From a phage, in sequence record PZ379547.1: a stretch of DNA of 38,987 nucleotides. The stretch is one strand, 5' to 3'. The notes under the pieces were generated by a model. It ran no database searches, was not told the DNA's origin, and saw only the letters and a program-made list of their open reading frames with translations. This document shows, piece after piece, positions 1-26,537 of this stretch. Each line of letters starts with the position of its first letter. Position 1 is the stretch's first letter. The translations under genes were made by a program, and so were the position numbers.

Positions 1-127
1 TCCACACTGAGTTCTGGGACAATGGGGTCCGGGTAACTCACGATACTGACGACGAGCTTGGACTAGGGTCCTACGTTACGTTCCACTAGCTGAATGAATA
101 ACTATAGGCGAAAACTGAATTAATAAG
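1..127 (+). repeat. Window-end duplication, copy 1 (identical to 38861-38987); includes last 89 nt of terminase large-subunit gene, stop TAG 87-89
   Basis: Exact 127-nt identity between window start and end, read directly; consistent with a circularised assembly of a terminally redundant phage genome. Confidence 0.95.
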
Positions 128-183
128 CAGTTAGTAACCTATAGTTACTACCAGCCTAACCTACTGTTTTATAAGGAGTTTGG

Positions 184-206
184 ACTTAACTATCACTATA
201 GGGAAG
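184..206 (+). promoter_or_regulatory. Phage RNAP promoter (position equivalent to T7 phiOR, upstream of gene 19.5)
   Basis: cttaactatcactatagggaaga matches the repeated promoter consensus; +1 G at 201. Confidence 0.8.
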
Positions 207-386
207 ACCCCCGGTTACTTATAGTATTACTGTAGTGAATATACATATGCAGACTTTATGCAAGACCTTAGGAGGCAGACTCCGAGTTCTTACCTAAGGC
301 TTGCACCGATGGAAGGAGGGTGATATTAATCATAATCCCTCCAATACAGATAGTCACCGACCATAGATACAGGAGGTATGTAGCAT

Positions 387-545
387 ATGGCAAAGACCAA
401 AGCTGTACTTAAAGCTCTGGCGACCAATCGAGCTACATACAGGTTTCTTGCTGCTGTTCTACTTGCTGCTGGCGTTACTGCTGGAAGTCAGTGGGTCGGG
501 TGGGTCGAGACTCTCGTATGTTCTCTGGTCTCTCAGTGTAATTAA
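387..545 (+). CDS. Small hydrophobic protein, positional equivalent of T7 gene 19.5 (52 aa)
   Basis: ATG 387 with AGGAGG 10 nt upstream; ORF MAKTKAVLKALATNRATYRFLAAVLLAAGV...; stop TAA 543-545; sits after terminase and the phiOR-like promoter. Confidence 0.55.
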   Translation: MAKTKAVLKALATNRATYRFLAAVLLAAGVTAGSQWVGWVETLVCSLVSQCN

Positions 546-580
546 CGCAATCATGGTAACGATTCATGAGCGGAAGACCT

Positions 581-619
581 AAGGTCAGTACGTGGATAAA
601 GACTCACTCTACTGACCTT
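581..619 (+). other. Stem-loop: perfect 10-bp inverted repeat (aaggtcagta / tactgacctt) with 19-nt loop, downstream of gene 19.5
   Basis: Inverted repeat read directly; no U-tract follows, so not a classic intrinsic terminator. Confidence 0.4.
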
Positions 620-674
620 AGCTACTGTAGTCAAGGACTTTAGGTAACACCTTAAGAGAAGCTCACTTAGGGTC

Positions 675-749
675 ATCCTACTTATTGGTCTATCCTAGTG
701 TCGCCTGACCTACGGTCCTTGACCTACAGTGGCTGTGGCCTACAGTAGT
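675..749 (+). repeat. Short direct-repeat array (CCTAC/CCTACRGT motifs, about 5-6 copies) on the right-end side of the predicted terminal repeat
   Basis: atCCTACttat, atCCTAGtgt, gaCCTACGGTcc, gaCCTACAGTgg, ggCCTACAGTag at irregular 14-17 bp spacing. Confidence 0.6.
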
Positions 750-784
750 GACGATGAGGTTTGGACCAAAAGTTTGAGACCACA

Positions 785-980
785 TCTCACACTTCAAGAA
801 CCTCAAGTCTCCCCATAGGCCCTCTTTAAGTCCAGACCAAAGGCCCTACCCCAGTCTATCATAAGGTCGTACCGATTGTCAAGACGTTAGGTCAACGATA
901 GGTCTAGGCTATGGCTTAGGGAAGGACGATAGGTAGGGACTATTGGTCTGCCTCTGAGTCCCTATCTGTATAGTGATATA
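785..980 (+). repeat. Predicted terminal-repeat region of the linear genome (single copy in this circularised representation)
   Basis: TCTCACACTTCAAGAACC...CCCCATAGG and ...GTCCCTATCTGT resemble the recalled T7 left-end sequence (TCTCACAGTG...CCCCCATAGG... and ...GTGTCCCTATCTGTTACAG); flanked by short-repeat arrays as in T7; boundaries are approximate. Confidence 0.4.
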
Positions 981-995
981 GTATAACATTACGTC

Positions 996-1096
996 CTACA
1001 CCTACAGTCTAACTAACCTACAGTCATTGACTCCTGCTGTACCTACAGTCACCGACCATCGGTAAAGCCATTACCTACAGTCAAAGACCTACAGTC
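996..1096 (+). repeat. Short direct-repeat array: five perfect CCTACAGTC copies (1001, 1017, 1042, 1074, 1088) on the left-end side of the predicted terminal repeat
   Basis: Exact 9-mer recurs 5 times at irregular spacing; analogous to the CCTAAAG-type arrays next to the T7 terminal repeat. Confidence 0.7.
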
Positions 1097-1349
1097 TAAC
1101 GACACAAAGCTATAGACTTAAGGTCTAATACATGTTAGTCAAAGACTATATCCTCTTAGTCACTATGGGGCCGACGATAGCTTAATCAATATTATTTAAG
1201 ATTACCTATTGACTACAGGTCCAGACTATGGCTTAATAGCTTCCGTCAACACGACACGGCAACAACCGGATAGTGAAGACGCCGGGTCATCCCGGTTAAG
1301 TAGACAGCCTGATAAGTCATACGAACAACAGGCAGATGACAGAAAGTAG

Positions 1350-1379
1350 TTGACAAGATGTACCGACTTAAAGTAGTAT
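1350..1379 (+). promoter_or_regulatory. Candidate host sigma70 early promoter (T7 A2-like)
   Basis: TTGACA (1350-1355), 18-nt spacer, TAGTAT (1374-1379), followed by gtaccaca as recalled downstream of the T7 A2 -10; lies between the predicted genome end and the first early gene. Confidence 0.4.
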
Positions 1380-1503
1380 GTACCACATCAACACGAAACA
1401 ACGGTGACGACCAACACTGAAACGGTCTACCTGAAGTCCTCTGACTGAAGGGAATGCTCTTTAACAATCTGGATAAACTCTTAATGTGCGCCGATAGCGA
1501 CTA

Positions 1504-1548
1504 ACTACAGGGTCTTTGAGTCTACATCTGAAGGCCCTGACTGATAGT
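1504..1548 (+). promoter_or_regulatory. Predicted RNase III-type processing hairpin (early mRNA, site A)
   Basis: actacagggtc ... ggccctgactgatagt form an imperfect stem with an internal bulge; same element recurs before the next early genes. Confidence 0.5.
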
Positions 1549-1571
1549 CACTAACTTAAAGGATGGACACT

Positions 1572-1817
1572 ATGAAACACTTAAGCACAATCACTAATAG
1601 CAATGAAGTATTCGTGAACACTAAAGGCTATGCGTGGATTCAGCTTAAAGAGATGACAGGAGCGCGTCACCGTGTGGTAGTGCGCAAGGTATCAAGCAAG
1701 CAGTTCAGCAACTACAGCGTCGATACTGTGCGTATAGACAACGAGACATACCTGATAGACTCGCAGATAACCGTGAGTCCTACAGTGGGCGTCTCAGCTC
1801 CTTATTTCGCTAACTGA
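1572..1817 (+). CDS. Hypothetical early protein (about 81 aa)
   Basis: ORF in six-frame track (1563..1817); second ATG at 1572 has better SD spacing (aagga 1559-1563); no recognisable motif. Confidence 0.55.
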   Translation: MKHLSTITNSNEVFVNTKGYAWIQLKEMTGARHRVVVRKVSSKQFSNYSVDTVRIDNETYLIDSQITVSPTVGVSAPYFAN

Positions 1818-1826
1818 GAGTGATTA

Positions 1827-1865
1827 ACTACAGGTCGTTAGACTGATAGCGGCCTGACTGATAGT
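1827..1865 (+). promoter_or_regulatory. Predicted RNase III-type processing hairpin (site B)
   Basis: actacaggtc ... ggcctgactgatagt; same architecture as site A. Confidence 0.5.
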
Positions 1866-1900
1866 CACTAACACATAATTAACTTTGAGAGGATATAACT

Positions 1901-2407
1901 ATGGAACGTAATGCTAACGCATACTATGAGCTGCTGGCTGCAACCGTTGAGGCATTTATCGAGCGTATTCAGTACGACCACCTGACTCAAGATGACGACT
2001 ACAGCGATGCGCTGCATGAGGTCGTAGACGGTCAGGTTCCTCACTATTACCACGAGATTTTTACGGTGATGGCTGCTGATGGTATAGACAACGAGTTCGA
2101 AGACTCTGGGATGATACCTGAAACCAAGGACGTAACGCGTATCCTACAAGCTCGCATCTATGAGGCACTTTATAACGACGTGTCTAATAGCTTGGATGTA
2201 GTCTGGTTTGAGGATGAAGAGGCAGACGAAGAGGATGAATATTGGGTAGTTGACGCTAAAACAGGCGCAATAATTGTGCAAGCTGTAGCTCTTGAGGTCG
2301 CTACTGCATGTGCCAAGGTTAACTATGCGGCAGGTCGCCACCTGAAGGTGGAAGACATCAATGATAACGTAGTGTTCGACCCTGCGGCTGAGGACTGCGA
2401 GCGATGA
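1901..2407 (+). CDS. ocr: Ocr-like DNA-mimic anti-restriction protein (T7 gene 0.3 homolog) with C-terminal extension, 168 aa
   Basis: [43 protein letters not shown] aligns with recalled T7 Ocr ([43 protein letters not shown]); acidic stretch; GAGAGGA SD 8 nt upstream of ATG. Confidence 0.85.
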
Positions 2408-2589
2408 GCAAGATATACGCAATATACCATGTCGTGCCTAACTCATGGGGAGATAACCACATCATGCAGGAGCCTTGTTATTATGACGAGGATGTGGCAA
2501 AACAGGCACTAGCGGAAGCCCAAGCGGTAGCCAAAGACCCTTGGTCTGGCGTGTACGAGGTCTGCATGGAGGTTATACAAGTTGTCTAA
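2404..2589 (+). CDS. Hypothetical early protein (61 aa)
   Basis: ATGA start/stop overlap with the ocr-like gene; ORF in track; no recognisable motif. Confidence 0.45.
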
Positions 2590-2736
2590 AACTTATGGCC
2601 TCTGCCAGCACCACGTCACTATCGCCCGGCTTATGGTCAAGACCGGGCAGTTAGACCACGATTGGGCTATGCGTCTCTTGAAAGTGGTCTACAGGAGACG
2701 CAAGCGTATGCACGACAGTTTACACGCTAAGTGACA

Positions 2737-2775
2737 GACTACAGGTCATCAATGCTGGTGGCCTGACTGATAGTC
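2737..2775 (+). promoter_or_regulatory. Predicted RNase III-type processing hairpin (site C)
   Basis: gactacaggtcatc ... ggtggcctgactgatagtc; inner stem AGGUCAU/GUGGCCU with G-U pairs. Confidence 0.5.
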
Positions 2776-2797
2776 ATTAACAACTGAGAGGGAAGAT

Positions 2798-3025
2798 ATG
2801 AACACAATCACTGGTGCCATAACCAAAGGTTTTCGAGCAATTTTCGGTGAAACGCAAGAAGTATGCACCAATCATAAATTCGTACTTTCTTGCGTAGCAG
2901 GTGACGAGTTTGACGGGTTCGATAAACTGGTGGTTTGCGACCATTGCGGACAAGAGGCTATCCAACACTCAAACGGTAAATTTGAATTAATAGACGATAG
3001 CCTTACAGAAGGAGACGGCGAGTAA
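2798..3025 (+). CDS. Hypothetical early protein with four Cys (possible zinc ribbon), 75 aa
   Basis: ORF with GAGAGGGA SD; Cys at C-x8-C ... C-x2-C (CTNHKFVLSC ... CDHC). Confidence 0.55.
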   Translation: MNTITGAITKGFRAIFGETQEVCTNHKFVLSCVAGDEFDGFDKLVVCDHCGQEAIQHSNGKFELIDDSLTEGDGE

Positions 3026-3099
3026 CCTAAATAAACAGGAGAGAACCAAATCATAGCTTGACCATAACACTGACGTGATGGTACTGAGTGATAGACGAG

Positions 3100-3123
3100 A
3101 GGTCATCGACTGATAGGTGGCCT
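3100..3123 (+). promoter_or_regulatory. Predicted RNase III-type hairpin (site D)
   Basis: AGGUCAU (3100-3106) pairs with GUGGCCU (3117-3123) via G-U wobbles. Confidence 0.4.
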
Positions 3124-3157
3124 CAAAGATTACCACTTACATTGATAGGAGTTAACT

Positions 3158-3262
3158 ATGAGCACTGCAATCATCTGGACTATCTCAGGCTTCGTAGCGT
3201 GGGGAATGTTTACTCTAGTCTGCAAACTACCGGTCCTTACTCAACTGTTATGGGGCTTATGA
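3158..3262 (+). CDS. Small hydrophobic peptide (34 aa), candidate early membrane protein
   Basis: ATG 3158 with AGGAG 6 nt upstream; MSTAIIWTISGFVAWGMFTLVCKLPVLTQLLWGL; stop TGA 3260-3262 overlaps next ATG (ATGA). Confidence 0.45.
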   Translation: MSTAIIWTISGFVAWGMFTLVCKLPVLTQLLWGL

Positions 3263-3462
3263 CTATGAGTATCGCACTATTGATAGCCATAGGCTATGGA
3301 CTTATCGCCTACGTGCTGGTGAGAGACATCAACAAAGCGCGTAAAGTCTACAAATTCAAATATGTACGTCTGGGTAGCTGGACTGTACGTCAACCTAACG
3401 GACGATTCATGCGCAACTTAGCGAACGTCTGGGATATAGCAACTCTTGGGAGCAAACTGTAA
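3259..3462 (+). CDS. Small membrane protein (67 aa; one predicted TM helix)
   Basis: ATG 3259 coupled to upstream stop; MTMSIALLIAIGYGLIAYVLV hydrophobic segment; the track ORF 3088..3462 starts at GTG inside hairpin D, so the shorter start is preferred. Confidence 0.45.
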   Translation: MTMSIALLIAIGYGLIAYVLVRDINKARKVYKFKYVRLGSWTVRQPNGRFMRNLANVWDIATLGSKL

Positions 3463-3788
3463 TGAACAAGTCATACGGGATTAATCTGGTACACTCTATG
3501 GACGCAGAAATGAACATGTTAAGCCTACTGGCTACCGGGTATCGTCACGGAACGTCAAGTCACACCGCACGTCAACAGCAGGAGCGGGACCGTGTACTAC
3601 AGGCGCGACTCCGGGCAGAGGGCCATAAGTCCGAACTGATGTGTCTGGCGTATGGTGGACGACCAATCACCGACGATGGTAAACTTTTAGTCTCAGGCTG
3701 GAAGGCGATAGACCAACGGTCAACCATCAAGCACACGACCAAAGGTGACTTCAGTCATCTCCACGCTAACCCGCTGATATGCAAGTAA
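3462..3788 (+). CDS. Hypothetical early protein (108 aa)
   Basis: ORF in track; ATG overlaps upstream TAA (TAATG); last gene before the RNA polymerase; not similar to the T7 0.7 kinase. Confidence 0.5.
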   Translation: MNKSYGINLVHSMDAEMNMLSLLATGYRHGTSSHTARQQQERDRVLQARLRAEGHKSELMCLAYGGRPITDDGKLLVSGWKAIDQRSTIKHTTKGDFSHLHANPLICK

Positions 3789-3793
3789 TTCTG

Positions 3794-3816
3794 ACTTAAC
3801 TATCACTATAGGACTC
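3794..3816 (+). promoter_or_regulatory. Phage RNAP promoter directly upstream of the RNA polymerase gene
   Basis: cttaactatcactataggactca matches the promoter consensus; +1 G at 3811, 75 nt before the gene 1 ATG. Confidence 0.7.
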
Positions 3817-3885
3817 AAGGTCTAAGACTCCAAGTGAAAGACCAAAGAGACTTTAAGTGAAAGACTAATAACAAGGACTTTAAGT

Positions 3886-6567
3886 ATGAGCGTCATCTCT
3901 ATTGACAAGCACGACTTCTCTGATGTGTCGAACGCCATTGAGCCGTTTAACCTGCTGGCTGACCACTACGGGCAAGACCTTGCAGTCAAACAGCTTCAGC
4001 TTGAGCATGAGGCATATACAGAAGGCGAGCGACGTTTCATCAAGAACCTTGAGCGGCAGACTGAGCGCGGGGAACTGGCAGACAATCAGGTCGCCAAGCC
4101 TTTGATGCAGACTCTGGTCCCTAAGATTGCGCAAGCCGTCAGGGAGTGGCACGAAGGCCTAGACGGGAAGCTGTCAACCTCGCGTCCTAGCGTAGCGTTC
4201 ACCATGTTGAGCACTGAAGAGAAGGCCGTAAAGGACCGCTCTATGCGCATCTCCTGTGAGTCCGCTGCGGTTATCATACTGAAGGTCGTACTCTCCAAGC
4301 TGGTCAAGCCTGAAGGGATACCGATTACACCGATGGCCTCCGCGATAGGTCGCACACTTGAGGACGAAATCCGCTTCGGTCGCATCCGTGACAAAGAGAA
4401 GGAGCACTTCAAGAAGGCGATAGCTGATAACCTGAACAAGCGAGCTGGGGCATCCTACAAGAAAGCCTACATGCAAGCGGTCGAGGCGTCCATGCTGGAG
4501 CAAGGCCAACTGGAAGATGCATGGGGTACTTGGAGTCCTACAGAGGCTGTACACGTTGGCATCAAGATGCTCGAGATTGTCATCCAGTCAACACAACTGG
4601 TCGAGCTTAAGCGGTACGGTGCTGGTAATGCAGCGGCTGACGTAGAGATGGTCCACCTGTCAGACTTCTGGGTCAAGAAGATGGCACAACGAGGATTCAG
4701 CCTTGCGGGTATCGCTCCAGTCTACCAGCCTTGCGTCGTTCCACCTAAGCCGTGGACTGGTGTCGTAGGTGGTGGGTACTGGGCCAAAGGTCGCAGACCG
4801 TTACCATTGATTCGCTTAGGGTCTAAGTCTGCGGTAGCACGTTATGAAGACGTATACATGCCTGAAGTCTATGACGCTGTGAACATCATTCAGAATACAC
4901 CTTGGAAAGTTAACAAGAAGGTATTGGACGTGGTGAACATGGTCGAGAAGCTGAACAACACGCCTATTAATGACATCCCTCAGATGGAACCGCTGAAGCC
5001 TGAGGACTATGCTGGTGAAACCGAGGAGGAACTCAAGGCATGGAAGAAGGCTGCTGCTGGTATCTATCGCCGCGAGAAGGCCAGACAGTCACGCAGATTG
5101 TCCATGAGTTTCATCGTATCACAGGCCAACAAGTTCTCACAGTTTAAGGCCATCTGGTTCCCGTACAACATGGATTGGCGAGGTCGTGTCTACGCTGTCC
5201 CGATGTTCAACCCTCAGGGTAACGACATGCAGAAGGGGCTCCTGACTCTGGCAGTCGGCAAGCCTATCGGGGCGGATGGTTTCAAATGGCTTAAAGTCCA
5301 CGGTGCAAACTGTGCGGGTGTCGATAAAGTCACCTTCGATGAGCGCATCAAGTGGGTGGAAGACAACCACGAAAACATCATGGCTGCTGCTAAGGCACCG
5401 ATGGATAGTATTGAGTGGTGGGGCAAGTTAGACTCTCCGTTCTGTTTCCTCGCGTTCTGCTTCGAGTATGCTGGCGTAATGCACCACGGCCTGTCTTACT
5501 CCTGCTCGCTGCCGATAGCGTTCGATGGGTCCTGCTCTGGTATTCAGCACTTCAGTGCGATGCTTCGTGACCACATCGGTGGACATGCAGTAAACCTGAC
5601 GCCATCCGGCATGGTACAAGACATCTACCGCATTGTGTCTGACCGCATTGAGGAGGAGCTTAAAGTCCTTCTGATTAACGGTACTGACAACGAGATGGTC
5701 ACTCACGAGGATAAGAAAACTGGTGAGATTACCGAACGTATCAAGCTGGGGACACGAGAGCTGGCCCGTCAGTGGCTGACATACGGTATGTCACGCAAGG
5801 TCACTAAGCGTTCAGTCATGACTCTGGCATACGGGTCGAAAGAGTACGGATTCGCAGACCAAGTTTACGAGGACATCGTGATGCCAGCGATTGACTCAGG
5901 GTCTGGCGCTATGTTCACTGAACCAAGCCAAGCGTCTCGCTTCATGGCAAAGATGATTTGGGAAGCTGTGAGTGTGACAGTAGTTGCTGCGGTTGACGCG
6001 ATGAAGTGGCTTCAAGGTGCTGCCAAGCTGCTGGCTGCTGAGGTGAAGGACAAGAAGACTGGGGAAATCCTGAAGCCTTGCCTTCCGGTACACTGGGTCA
6101 CACCTGATGGGTTCCCGGTCTGGCAGGAATACCGCAAGAAGGATAGCACTCGTCTGAACCTGATGTTCTTAGGGTCCTTCAACCTTCAACCTACGGTCAA
6201 CAAAGGTACGAAGAAAGAGCTGGACAAGCACAAGCAGGAGTCAGGCATTAGCCCTAACTTCGTCCACTCACAAGATGGTAGCCACCTGCGGAAGACTGTA
6301 GTCCACACTCACCGCAAGTATGGCGTGATGTCATTCGCAGTGATTCACGATAGCTTCGGGACCATCCCTGCTGACGCTGAGTATCTGTTCCGTGGTGTCC
6401 GTGAGACGATGGTCGAGACATACCGCGATAACGATGTGCTGCTTGACTTCTACGAGCAGTTTGAATACCAGCTTCATGAAAGCCAGCGCGACAAGTTGCC
6501 TGAGCTTCCGAAGAAAGGTAAACTGAATATCGAAGACATCTTGTCTTCAGACTTTGCATTCGCTTAA
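3886..6567 (+). CDS. gp1: Single-subunit DNA-directed RNA polymerase (T7 gene 1 homolog), 893 aa
   Basis: DGSCSGIQHFSAMLRD, RSVMTLAYGSKEYGF, VIHDSFGTIPADA and C-terminal ...SDFAFA match recalled T7 RNAP motifs. Confidence 0.97.
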   Translation: MSVISIDKHDFSDVSNAIEPFNLLADHYGQDLAVKQLQLEHEAYTEGERRFIKNLERQTERGELADNQVAKPLMQTLVPKIAQAVREWHEGLDGKLSTSRPSVAFTMLSTEEKAVKDRSMRISCESAAVIILKVVLSKLVKPEGIPITPMASAIGRTLEDEIRFGRIRDKEKEHFKKAIADNLNKRAGASYKKAYMQAVEASMLEQGQLEDAWGTWSPTEAVHVGIKMLEIVIQSTQLVELKRYGAGNAAADVEMVHLSDFWVKKMAQRGFSLAGIAPVYQPCVVPPKPWTGVVGGGYWAKGRRPLPLIRLGSKSAVARYEDVYMPEVYDAVNIIQNTPWKVNKKVLDVVNMVEKLNNTPINDIPQMEPLKPEDYAGETEEELKAWKKAAAGIYRREKARQSRRLSMSFIVSQANKFSQFKAIWFPYNMDWRGRVYAVPMFNPQGNDMQKGLLTLAVGKPIGADGFKWLKVHGANCAGVDKVTFDERIKWVEDNHENIMAAAKAPMDSIEWWGKLDSPFCFLAFCFEYAGVMHHGLSYSCSLPIAFDGSCSGIQHFSAMLRDHIGGHAVNLTPSGMVQDIYRIVSDRIEEELKVLLINGTDNEMVTHEDKKTGEITERIKLGTRELARQWLTYGMSRKVTKRSVMTLAYGSKEYGFADQVYEDIVMPAIDSGSGAMFTEPSQASRFMAKMIWEAVSVTVVAAVDAMKWLQGAAKLLAAEVKDKKTGEILKPCLPVHWVTPDGFPVWQEYRKKDSTRLNLMFLGSFNLQPTVNKGTKKELDKHKQESGISPNFVHSQDGSHLRKTVVHTHRKYGVMSFAVIHDSFGTIPADAEYLFRGVRETMVETYRDNDVLLDFYEQFEYQLHESQRDKLPELPKKGKLNIEDILSSDFAFA

Positions 6568-26487: not shown

Positions 26488-26537
26488 AAGGGCCTATAGA
26501 TTTACCTTAACTATCACTATAGGGACTATAGGCCCTT
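26488..26537 (+). repeat. Perfect 12-bp inverted repeat (aagggcctatag / ctataggccctt) bracketing the gene 13 promoter
   Basis: Arms at 26488-26499 and 26526-26537, read directly. Confidence 0.8.
26505..26527 (+). promoter_or_regulatory. Phage RNAP promoter (T7 phi13-like position)
   Basis: ccttaactatcactatagggact; +1 G at 26522. Confidence 0.85.

Follow-up and report, generated by a model that had tools for sequence, protein, structure and literature searches.

Patchy single-gene cassettes and RNase III-type hairpins in the early region of an LM33_P1-like Kayfunavirus

The early regions of T7-family phages have been a repeated source of host-directed inhibitors, including Ocr, gp0.4, gp0.6 and the gp0.7 kinase. 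The gp0.4 protein of phage T7 is an inhibitor of FtsZ and its gp0.6A an inhibitor of MreB. Of the class I genes of T7, all except gene 1 can be dispensed with for growth in laboratory hosts. In phages of the T4 type, small early accessory genes are flanked by repeated stem-loops, the promoter-early stem-loops (PeSL), which mark swap points. Kayfunaviruses of the LM33_P1 type are T7-family phages that have been used against pandemic and K1 E. coli.

The window analysed here is the whole 38,987 nucleotide stretch of sequence record PZ379547.1. It is ~98% identical to phage LM33_P1 and to vB_EcoP-101136BS1 and, as judged from this similarity, is a Kayfunavirus, a K1F-like coliphage of the T7 family. 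An earlier note, made from the sequence alone, placed a cluster of small genes between the genome end and the RNA polymerase gene. The cluster does precede the polymerase gene, but the genome end is located inside the first ~1.1 kb and not at base 1, because the window is a circular permutation whose first base directly follows the terminase gene. Coding sequence on the + strand makes up 87.5% of positions 1572 to 3788. The features of this region and its borders are as follows.

1350..1379, + strand: candidate sigma-70 early promoter, TTGACA-18-TAGTAT, the best upstream + strand match to the consensus (10/12)
1495..1553, + strand: RNase III-type hairpin 1, before gene A; -22.9 kcal/mol, z -2.9
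1572..1817, + strand: gene A, 81 aa, basic (pI 9.4); K1F gp0.2 family, phrog_10124; mobile cassette
1815..1873, + strand: RNase III-type hairpin 2, before ocr; -23.8 kcal/mol, z -4.5; repeat families D1/D3
1901..2407, + strand: ocr (gp0.3), 168 aa; Ocr domain and a ~55-aa C-terminal extension
2404..2589, + strand: gene B, 61 aa, acidic (pI 4.4); CR8 gp0.31 family; rare indel gene
2582..2734, + strand: gene C, 50 aa, basic (pI 10.7), TTG start; K1F gp0.35, phrog_5058; distant T7 gp0.4 homologue
2730..2778, + strand: RNase III-type hairpin 3, before gene D; -19.3 kcal/mol, z -2.0
2778..3051, + strand: gene D cassette, CDS 2798-3025, 75 aa, acidic (pI 4.5); phrog_32657
3085..3139, + strand: RNase III-type hairpin 4, before gene E; -19.8 kcal/mol, z -2.6
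3158..3262, + strand: gene E, 34 aa, hydrophobic; CR8 gp0.705, CR44b gp0.41
3259..3462, + strand: gene F, 67 aa, predicted N-terminal TM helix and basic tail; T3 gp0.6, K1F gp0.37/0.6, CR8 gp0.71 family
3462..3788, + strand: gene G, 108 aa, basic; K1F/CR8 'gp0.38' family, phrog_7066; core early gene
3796..3812, + strand: phage RNA polymerase promoter TTAACTATCACTATAGG, immediately preceding gene 1; marks the right border of the cluster
3886: start of the RNA polymerase gene (gene 1)

The cluster contains eight small genes including ocr. Two of them have relatives among the known early proteins of T7/T3, and five have no known function. Ocr matches Pfam PF08684 over residues 8–94 (E 7.3e-29), with 80% identity to K1F gp0.3 and 48% to T7 Ocr. 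The gene order of ocr, gp0.4-like gene, membrane peptides and gene 1 is syntenic with T7, T3, K1F and CR8, in agreement with the T7-like early position that the earlier note had proposed. The comparison supports 1572–3788 as the early region of a T7-family phage, which host RNA polymerase would transcribe. Exact copies of TTAACTATCACTATAGG are found at 3796–3812, 186–202 and 26507–26523, and 11 copies are found when up to 3 mismatches are allowed, against 0.04 expected; the CR8 annotation has a promoter at the position matching 3796–3812. The scan for σ70 promoters returned 7 sites where 5.9 are expected in shuffled sequences. This is not above chance, therefore promoters are not assignable by consensus alone and 1350–1379 is a candidate only.

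Hairpin 1 has a lower stem, an internal loop and an upper stem of ~10 bp. Hairpin 2 is a direct repeat of hairpins 1 and 3, with hairpin 3 being 87% identical to its 3' arm (repeat family D3), and hairpin 4 is kept in Pipis and K1F as the sole hairpin after gene C. The z scores listed above are from folding against shuffled sequences. All four hairpins align with the annotated R0.3, R0.5 and R1 sites of T3, with AGTGA..AACT.CAGGTC...GGCCT...TGAT..TCACT as the common consensus, and they resemble R0.3, R0.5 and R1 of T7 and T3 in length, in having two stems with an internal loop and in their location between genes. Unlike the T7 and T3 sites, the four are packed into 1.7 kb, three of them repeat one another closely in direct orientation (77–87% identical) and two fall on junctions of gene gain or loss. 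An Rfam search of positions 1–4200 returned no family. On their homology to the T3 sites the hairpins are of the RNase III type, and by analogy with T7 and T3 they would be cleaved and the region expressed early. Following the same analogy, host RNA polymerase would transcribe the operon as soon as the left genome end has entered the cell, and the transcript would then be cut at the four hairpins into units carrying A, ocr-B-C, D and E-F-G. Each start in the cluster has a purine-rich SD sequence 8–10 nt to its 5' side, and ATGA, TAATG or overlapping-TTG junctions are visible inside each unit, coupling the translation of its genes.

The six small ORFs reported in the earlier note are all present on the + strand at the positions given, and their homologues and dN/dS values indicate that all six are real. 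A seventh, the 50 aa gene C at 2582–2734, had been overlooked because of its TTG start. Across the ORFs of the cluster, dN/dS (Nei-Gojobori, divergent pairs) is 0.05–0.57; these genes are under purifying selection and are conserved in relatives. The small ORFs have already been annotated as hypothetical proteins in LM33_P1, K1F (gp0.2, gp0.35 and gp0.37) and CR8 (gp0.31, gp0.705, gp0.71 and gp0.38). When homologues were sought among 50,697 phage records, gene G was found in 224, F in 223, C in 159, A in 119, D in 57, E in 34 and B in 6. Homologues of A, B, E and G with the same gene order include K1F gp0.2 and gp0.38 and CR8 gp0.31, gp0.705 and gp0.38. As these are themselves uncharacterised, the matches provide names only.

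The statement that no ORF carries a recognised motif missed two relationships, that of gene C to gp0.4 and that of gene F to T3 gp0.6. Gene C matches phrog_5058, a 49-aa PHROG, from end to end (1.8e-23) and phrog_7202 at 8e-4. Conversely, T7 gp0.4 matches phrog_7202 (4.6e-33) and phrog_5058 (9e-5), and CR8 gp0.4 matches phrog_5058 (1.1e-4); all of the cross-matches between C and gp0.4 are end to end. By BLASTP against a small database, gene C and T7 gp0.4 share 35% identity over 37 aa (E 0.04). The profile match is weak, at E 1e-4 to 1e-3, but reciprocal, and indicates that gene C is a distant homologue of T7 gp0.4, which bears out the expectation in the earlier note that this position holds host-directed inhibitors such as gp0.4. 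T7 gp0.4 (51 aa, phrog_7202) and gene C are alike in being ~50 aa, in lying downstream of ocr and in having a coupled start, and the CR44b annotation names the gene C orthologue '0.4'. In relatives without gene B, the ATG of gene C overlaps the ocr stop codon exactly as in T7 0.4. In this phage gene B has been placed in front, hence the TTG start, for which the SD is a GGAGG 9 nt upstream within the 3' end of gene B. Gene C is unlike T7 gp0.4 in having its own PHROG (5058), in having gene B interposed after ocr and in being strongly basic, whereas T7 gp0.4 has few basic residues. From this homology, gene C would most likely bind FtsZ and block division. Infection by K1F is reported to mislocalise FtsZ (PMC9372555).

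Genes E and F are predicted to be small inner-membrane proteins, with Kyte-Doolittle 19-residue maxima of 1.82 for E and 2.35, at residue 1, for F. The start of gene F overlaps the stop of gene E (ATGA), and alternative in-frame starts at 3250 and 3265 would give proteins of 70 and 65 aa. Gene F has a pI of 10.8, matches phrog_2385 (E 1.9e-32) and is 92% identical to K1F gp0.6 and 38% identical to T3 gp0.6 (E 3e-9). On these matches it is placed in the membrane-protein family of T3 gp0.6, K1F gp0.6/gp0.37 and CR8 gp0.71, which it resembles in length, TM helix, basic C-terminus and a location before the last early gene. It is not T7 gp0.6A, a phrog_8393 rather than phrog_2385 protein with a BLAST E of 0.09 over 20 aa; T7 gp0.6A has no significant BLAST match to any ORF of the window. 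The start of gene G overlaps the stop of gene F (TAATG). Gene G matches phrog_7066 (E 5.7e-46), is 88% identical to its K1F and 45% to its CR8 counterpart, has dN/dS of 0.22–0.33 and is present in 151 clusters, every one on contigs of ~39–40 kb. Its core is formed by residues ~28–108, with a variable N-terminus and an optional N-terminal insert of ~30 aa. An AlphaFold2 model from 48 sequences is all-helical, but with a pLDDT of 62.9 and a pTM of 0.28 it is unusable for fold searches.

Genes F and G belong to the core of the genus rather than to its variable accessory genes, and may therefore serve the phage's own programme instead of attacking the host; gene G, being conserved across the genus like F, is part of the basic early programme. 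The proposal that the whole cluster holds inhibitor candidates is narrowed by this to A, B and D, which are patchy, cross-family and cassette-like. A wider form of this reading, in which the conserved genes (F and G above all, possibly C and E) act in the phage programme and not in defence inhibition, is considered unlikely. The presence of F and G in ~223 related records, always directly before gene 1, the almost invariant C-terminal half of gene G and the membrane character of E and F are in its favour. The corresponding T7 and T3 early genes are, however, dispensable in laboratory hosts, gene G is missing from T7 and T3, and the conserved genes have no homology to replication, transcription or morphogenesis proteins. 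Possible roles of this kind are control of genome entry, a transcription switch, membrane events and exclusion of other phages.

Genes A, B and D are patchy single-gene cassettes, and their distribution supports the comparison with accessory and counter-defence genes, of which it is typical. Comparison of 30 early regions shows a mosaic architecture with hairpins at the module borders. In HC13 and phiHAO1-1 the gene A junction is within the shared 3' arm of the hairpin; gene D is missing in Pipis and K1F, where the junction is within the shared 5' arm. Such junctions indicate that recombination within the hairpin repeats has added or removed A and D. As optional cassettes, genes A, B and D move between phages of the same hosts, in part, as the junctions show for A and D, through recombination in the ~55 nt hairpin repeats that flank them. 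This resembles the PeSL of T4-type phages, a likeness resting on four junctions and the 30-genome map; the PeSL combines a promoter with a terminator-like stem-loop, whereas the repeat here is an RNA-processing hairpin.

Gene A is 95% identical to K1F gp0.2, and the ATG upstream of its start, at 1563, is without usable SD spacing. Its homologues include those of N4-like, Phapecoctavirus and Klebsiella phages, and the beta-rich protein is spread over four phage families. The membrane-embedded protein noted in the Pipis record is not supported, the Kyte-Doolittle 19-residue maximum being only 0.75. Fold searches with gene A gave no characterised match.

The four cysteines of the 75 aa gene D product, pointed out in the earlier note, are at positions 23, 32, 47 and 50. 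They form a C-x8-C-x14-C-x2-C pattern that is invariant in 6/6 cluster representatives, and the C-terminal Glu is also invariant. Of the two pairs, the first is a non-classic C-x8-C and the second has the classic CxxCG knuckle form; the product would be a small acidic zinc-knuckle protein. Only 6 clusters are found among 5.8 billion proteins, and about half of the phage records with gene D are Kagunavirus siphoviruses of ~45 kb. The block at 2778–3051 (~270 bp) has 87–89% nucleotide identity to the Kagunavirus phages XY1 and Bas73, and the shared sequence takes in the SD and a relic downstream SD. Against the siphovirus copies, gene D has dN/dS of 0.05–0.08. In CR8 and six IMG/VR relatives the slot of gene D holds a gp0.7-type kinase. 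The kinase, which in these phages lies in the same inter-hairpin slot, has no sequence relationship to gene D, and it is now reported as a broad anti-defence factor (PMC13645617). One GenBank TPA record names a gene D homologue LysW. With hhalign, the family matched T. thermophilus LysW at 50% probability over 17 columns only, at the V-C-x-x-C-G knuckle, and a second LysW (8%) scored like an unrelated rubredoxin (9.6%). Gene D has no Pfam or NCBIfam LysW match, it ends in GDGE as against the EDWGE of LysW, and no ATP-grasp ligase, such as the LysX/ArgX that accompanies LysW, was matched in the searches made. The name was therefore rejected.

It has to be considered whether A and D act on the host surface or on superinfection, through O-antigen or capsule synthesis, as is reported for the small accessory proteins called 'gnarl'. 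Both genes are almost confined to phages whose receptors are capsule or O-antigen (PMC11990801), namely Kayfunavirus, Kagunavirus, Gamaleyavirus and Klebsiella podoviruses, and there are reports of small phage proteins of 40–90 aa with an effect on O-antigen (bioRxiv 10.1101/2023.04.06.535777). Co-infection of shared hosts would, however, account for this distribution just as well, A and D have no sequence match in the supplements of the O-antigen study, and neither has a membrane segment or signal peptide. A surface role is considered improbable.

Gene B is a 181 nt segment that is missing in most relatives and has an ATGA overlap with ocr. It is 57% identical to CR8 gp0.31, has one other representative at 50% identity among 1.84 billion and no match in PHROG, Pfam or PDB. 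A dN/dS of 2.3 against HC13 was rejected as evidence of positive selection, being based on 1 synonymous and 9 non-synonymous changes, which are too few. Another possibility is that some of the small ORFs, mainly E, C and B, are non-genic open frames in early leader or spacer RNA. All three are very short, no PHROG family contains E or B, and several GenBank records omit C or E or fuse E with F. Against this, gene E is 47% identical to CR8 gp0.705, which has the same length of 34 aa, and has dN/dS of 0.07–0.25 (0.07 against phiHAO1-1); gene B has dN/dS of 0.18–0.20 against phiHAO1-1 and CR8 (dS 0.3–1.9); gene C has dN/dS of 0.44–0.57 in addition to its end-to-end PHROG match; and all three have an SD and coupled starts. 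It is very unlikely that they are not genes. Equally improbable is that gene G is a remnant or stand-in of the gp0.7 kinase/shut-off protein: like gp0.7 in T7 and T3, it closes the early region ahead of gene 1, a kinase is absent from the window (no match at E<=1 when T7 and CR8 gp0.7 were run by tblastn over the whole of it) and the C-terminus of gene G, KGDFSHLHANPLI, resembles the T7 gp0.7 glycine loop NGHFSAAYSHPLL, but hhalign probabilities are below 1% (0.2% against T7 and 0.15% against T3 gp0.7) with alignments mutually out of register, kinase and G coexist in CR8 and six IMG/VR relatives, and purifying selection acts on G in its present form.

For genes A, B, D, E and G, no characterised relative was obtained from Pfam, NCBIfam, PADLOC or the PHROG functional categories, nor from sequence and profile searches of the PDB. 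Matches to Ninjurin, DUF7864 and Geo26A in the PADLOC, NCBIfam and Pfam searches were all far below cut-offs. None of the cluster peptides is present in the supplements of the accessory-gene screen of Silas et al., and no functional study was found in the literature on K1F/Kayfunavirus early genes, gp0.38/gp0.31 and the PHROG numbers. [quoted passage not shown] The PHROG, Pfam and NCBIfam profiles likewise show no clear homology of the ORFs to phage housekeeping proteins, which would have spoken against the proposal of the earlier note. An anti-defence or host-takeover role of genes A, B, D, E and G would fit their position and mobility.

Overall, we regard it as likely that 1572–3788 is the class I operon of an LM33_P1-like Kayfunavirus, divided by hairpins, with A, B and D as optional cassettes encoding inhibitors of host proteins. 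On their position, size, charge and mobility, A, B and D would most likely be stoichiometric binders or inhibitors of host proteins of defence or physiology. More tentatively, at least one of the three may found a new family of phage inhibitors, with the RNase III hairpins doubling as recombination joints; this combination is possible but somewhat doubtful. The target in that case could be a defence system, or a host pathway, of the kind found in natural E. coli that carry a capsule or O-antigen, and the hairpins of T7-family early operons could let genes swap as hairpin-plus-gene units.

As an early accessory region this one is standard for the T7 family; its candidates are good, but novelty is not demonstrated. 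Among its seven small genes the search is narrowed: F and G belong to the genus core, and A, B and D are real accessory cassettes. Strong purifying selection has kept genes A and D after their transfer between unrelated families that share hosts, and they are therefore the best-justified inhibitor candidates, while gene C is the candidate for action on FtsZ. If hairpin-bounded cassettes are general, accessory genes in T7-like genomes could be located by a simple rule, and the cassettes would provide natural insertion points for the engineering of therapeutic phages.

The interval 1572-3788 has the usual makeup of an early accessory region in the T7 family. Bases 1400-3900 of the window are 98% identical to the Escherichia phages vB_EcoP-101136BS1 and LM33_P1 (Kayfunavirus LM33P1), 239 phage records have a match to these bases, and GenBank already lists the small ORFs as hypothetical proteins. 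The sequence is circularly permuted: base 1 of the window lies just past the terminase gene. The early gene order agrees with that of K1F, CR8, T7, and T3, running from gp0.2 through ocr, a 0.4-like gene, membrane peptides, and gp0.38 to a phage promoter and gene 1, the RNA polymerase gene. No gp0.7 kinase was found in the entire window. The features of the region are:

1350-1379, candidate sigma-70 promoter, consensus-like, the number of such matches here being not above chance
1495-1553, hairpin 1, intergenic
1572-1817, + strand, gene A, 81 aa
1815-1873, hairpin 2, intergenic
1901-2407, + strand, ocr, 168 aa
2404-2589, + strand, gene B, 61 aa
2582-2734, + strand, gene C, 50 aa, TTG start, with GGAGG 9 nt before it inside the 3' end of B
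2730-2778, hairpin 3, intergenic
2798-3025, + strand, gene D, 75 aa, Cys at 23, 32, 47, and 50
3085-3139, hairpin 4, intergenic
3158-3262, + strand, gene E, 34 aa
3259-3462, + strand, gene F, 67 aa, alternative in-frame starts at 3250 and 3265
3462-3788, + strand, gene G, 108 aa
3796-3812, phage promoter TTAACTATCACTATAGG, the right-hand limit of the early region, immediately before the RNA polymerase gene
3886, start of the RNA polymerase gene

Plus-strand coding sequence occupies 87.5% of the interval 1572-3788, and a purine-rich SD sequence lies ahead of every early-gene start. The small ORFs are genes, rather than chance frames, since each has homologues in other phages and divergent pairs have dN/dS values of 0.07-0.57 (Nei-Gojobori). 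For gene D against its siphovirus copies the value is 0.05-0.08, the changes being mainly synonymous. The six small ORFs that an earlier note had proposed as host-takeover or anti-defence candidates were all found on the + strand where it placed them. Its list was incomplete, having overlooked gene C with its TTG start.

Four RNase III-type hairpins, located before A, ocr, D, and E, share a shape of lower stem, internal loop, and upper stem of ~10 bp. They are more stable than shuffled sequences (z -2.0 to -4.5) and can be aligned to R0.3, R0.5, and R1, the annotated RNase III sites of T3. Three of them are close direct repeats, 77-87% identical. The units set off by the hairpins are A, ocr-B-C, D, and E-F-G. 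Within this operon layout the genes are coupled, through a common ATGA for ocr/B and for E/F, a common TAATG for F/G, and the position of the TTG of C inside the end of B. By analogy with T7 and T3, host polymerase would transcribe the region early and RNase III would process the transcript. Rfam has no family matching the hairpins, the promoters, or the rest of the early region.

The window has 11 copies of the phage promoter where 0.04 would be expected, and the copy at 3796-3812 would let the RNA polymerase raise its own synthesis. There is another exact copy of TTAACTATCACTATAGG at 186-202, near the genome end, as is T7 phiOL. Both lie in a 52-nt repeat (151-202 and 3761-3812, 77% identical), and nine more copies of the phage promoter are found farther downstream. 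Two tandem 21-nt repeats, AGACTCCAAGTGAAAGACCAA and AGACTTTAAGTGAAAGACTAA, are located between the promoter and the start of gene 1 (3825-3868), in a leader that folds no better than shuffled sequences. Short ACCTACAGT-type repeats (families D2, D8, and D9) are clustered at 700-1100, in non-coding DNA that precedes the early promoters, like the arrays near T7-family genome ends.

Core and accessory genes can be told apart by their record counts. Among 50,697 phage records, G is present in 224, F in 223, C in 159, A in 119, D in 57, E in 34, and B in 6. In an early-region map of 30 loci (the window, 7 from GenBank, and 22 from IMG/VR), F-G-gene 1 forms a constant right anchor and the left part is a mosaic whose modules are bordered by hairpins. 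The cassette junctions are within the hairpins. HC13 and phiHAO1-1 are without A and one hairpin, the junction being inside the common 3' arm CCTGACTGATAGTCACTAAC. Likewise, Pipis and K1F are without D, with the junction inside the common 5' arm, and in these gene C leads directly into the hairpin that precedes E/F in the window.

A 270-bp block containing D and its SD (2778-3051) has 87-89% nucleotide identity to the Kagunavirus siphoviruses XY1 and Bas73. The stop codon of D is followed by CCTAAATAAACAGGAGA (3026-3051), which in Kagunavirus serves the following gene as its ribosome-binding site; here no gene is behind it. This relic SD hints that D was transferred from a Kagunavirus-type genome. 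In other genomes the D slot either is empty or encodes K1F gp03 (hydrophobic, 55 aa), an HTH-like protein of 115 aa, or a gp0.7-type kinase.

Four IMG/VR relatives (L014, L015, L017, and L018) are without ocr in the first slot, having instead ~600-800 nt of other sequence from the first hairpin to the gp0.4-like gene. The absence of ocr from several close relatives means that the anti-restriction slot is itself exchangeable. In the 168 aa Ocr of the window, residues 8-94 form the Pfam Ocr domain; an acidic linker comes next, and then an additional C-terminal segment of ~55 aa (residues ~113-168). K1F Ocr (80% identity) also has a C-terminal extension, whereas those of T7 (117 aa), CR8, and phiHAO1-1 (111 aa) do not; long and short Ocr alternate between close relatives in the 30-genome map. 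A 129-aa protein (P0006) from a 1867 bp E. coli TPA contig has Ocr residues ~1-103 naturally fused to the last 24 residues of D, which implies a deletion variant that has lost the Ocr extension together with gene C and the greater part of D.

Gene C (pI 10.7) is K1F gp0.35, phrog_5058. It cross-matches the T7 gp0.4 PHROG (7202) at 8e-4 and, in reverse, T7 gp0.4 and CR8 gp0.4 match phrog_5058 end to end at ~1e-4. These matches and the conserved place after ocr identify C, at the level of sequence, as a distant homologue of gp0.4, the T7 FtsZ inhibitor. FtsZ is reported to be mislocalised during K1F infection (PMC9372555). By analogy with T7/T3 biology, C would inhibit FtsZ. A gp0.4-like gene in phiHAO1-1 (1181-1330) is unannotated, probably in error.

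Gene E is hydrophobic, with 47% identity to the 34-aa CR8 gp0.705. Gene F (phrog_2385) has an N-terminal TM helix and is related to K1F gp0.6/0.37 (92%), CR8 gp0.71 (80%), and T3 gp0.6 (38%, E 3e-9). Its sequence similarity supports homology to the T3 gp0.6 family; membership of the T7 gp0.6A family was rejected. In HC13 the E/F region is joined as a single 106-aa TTG-start ORF (2031-2351), a probable annotation error.

Gene G (pI 9.5; phrog_7066) is the counterpart of CR8 'gp0.38', and all of its records are T7-like genomes of ~39-40 kb. Its core is residues ~28-108; the N-terminus varies, with an optional insert of ~30 aa. This additional N-terminal module, FTDKNGVEWKYVGTDSRGRNYWEKTG, is present in many homologues of 130-139 aa (proteins P0081, P0088, P0096, and others) and absent from the window copy, and the shortest forms (83-86 aa) are the conserved core alone. 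The AF2 model of G is unusable, and no relationship to gp0.7 was detectable. One K1F record (NC_007456) has an unannotated G homologue at 2262-2465, probably an error.

Gene A (pI 9.4) is K1F gp0.2, phrog_10124. Outside Kayfunavirus it is found in Klebsiella T7-likes (~70%), Phapecoctavirus (70%), and N4-like Gamaleyavirus (35-50%), its homologues always sitting with small early genes. An AF2 model of moderate confidence (pLDDT 74.8, pTM 0.63) has six beta strands and matches only uncharacterised phage proteins in BFVD.

Gene B (pI 4.4) is in a 181-nt segment missing from most relatives. CR8 gp0.31 (57%), whose annotation (CR8 1463-1651) is probably in error, the likely start being the upstream ATG at 1463, is among its six phage records, and 1.84 billion proteins contain a single other 50%-identity representative. 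Between B and the HC13 copy (1293-1475), 9 of the changes are non-synonymous and 1 is synonymous, with flanking DNA that is ~97% identical, an odd pattern in which the counts are too small for positive selection to be called.

Gene D (pI 4.5) has four invariant Cys, as C-x8-C-x14-C-x2-C-G, and an acidic, invariant tail ending in Glu. Its family is tiny, with six clusters in 5.8 billion proteins. One homologue is named 'LysW', but in hhalign only a zinc-knuckle of 17 columns matches; a second LysW and rubredoxin give similar scores, and LysW models have no match.

Searches of Pfam, NCBIfam, PADLOC, and PDB (sequence/profile) gave no match for A, B, D, E, or G, and these small proteins are absent from the screen of Silas et al. 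No paper found in the K1F/Kayfunavirus early-gene literature gives a function for any of them. From their position, size, charge, and mobility, A, B, and D may be stoichiometric binders of host proteins involved in defence or physiology. A counter-defence position is plausible for the D slot, because the gp0.7-type kinase that relatives carry there is now credited with broad anti-defence activity (PMC13645617), an indication for the slot and not directly for D. A and D could instead have a surface-related role, like 'gnarl' proteins, being common to glycan-dependent phage groups (PMC11990801), although this distribution could equally reflect simply a shared host.

The view that the small early genes are inhibitor candidates is partly supported. 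Two of the genes have known relatives, two are genus-core, and three (A, B, and D) are true mobile cassettes in which a search for inhibitors makes sense. The early region contains nothing demonstrated to be of a new kind; its most useful new points are the organisation into cassettes bounded by hairpins and the exchange of D between podoviruses and siphoviruses.
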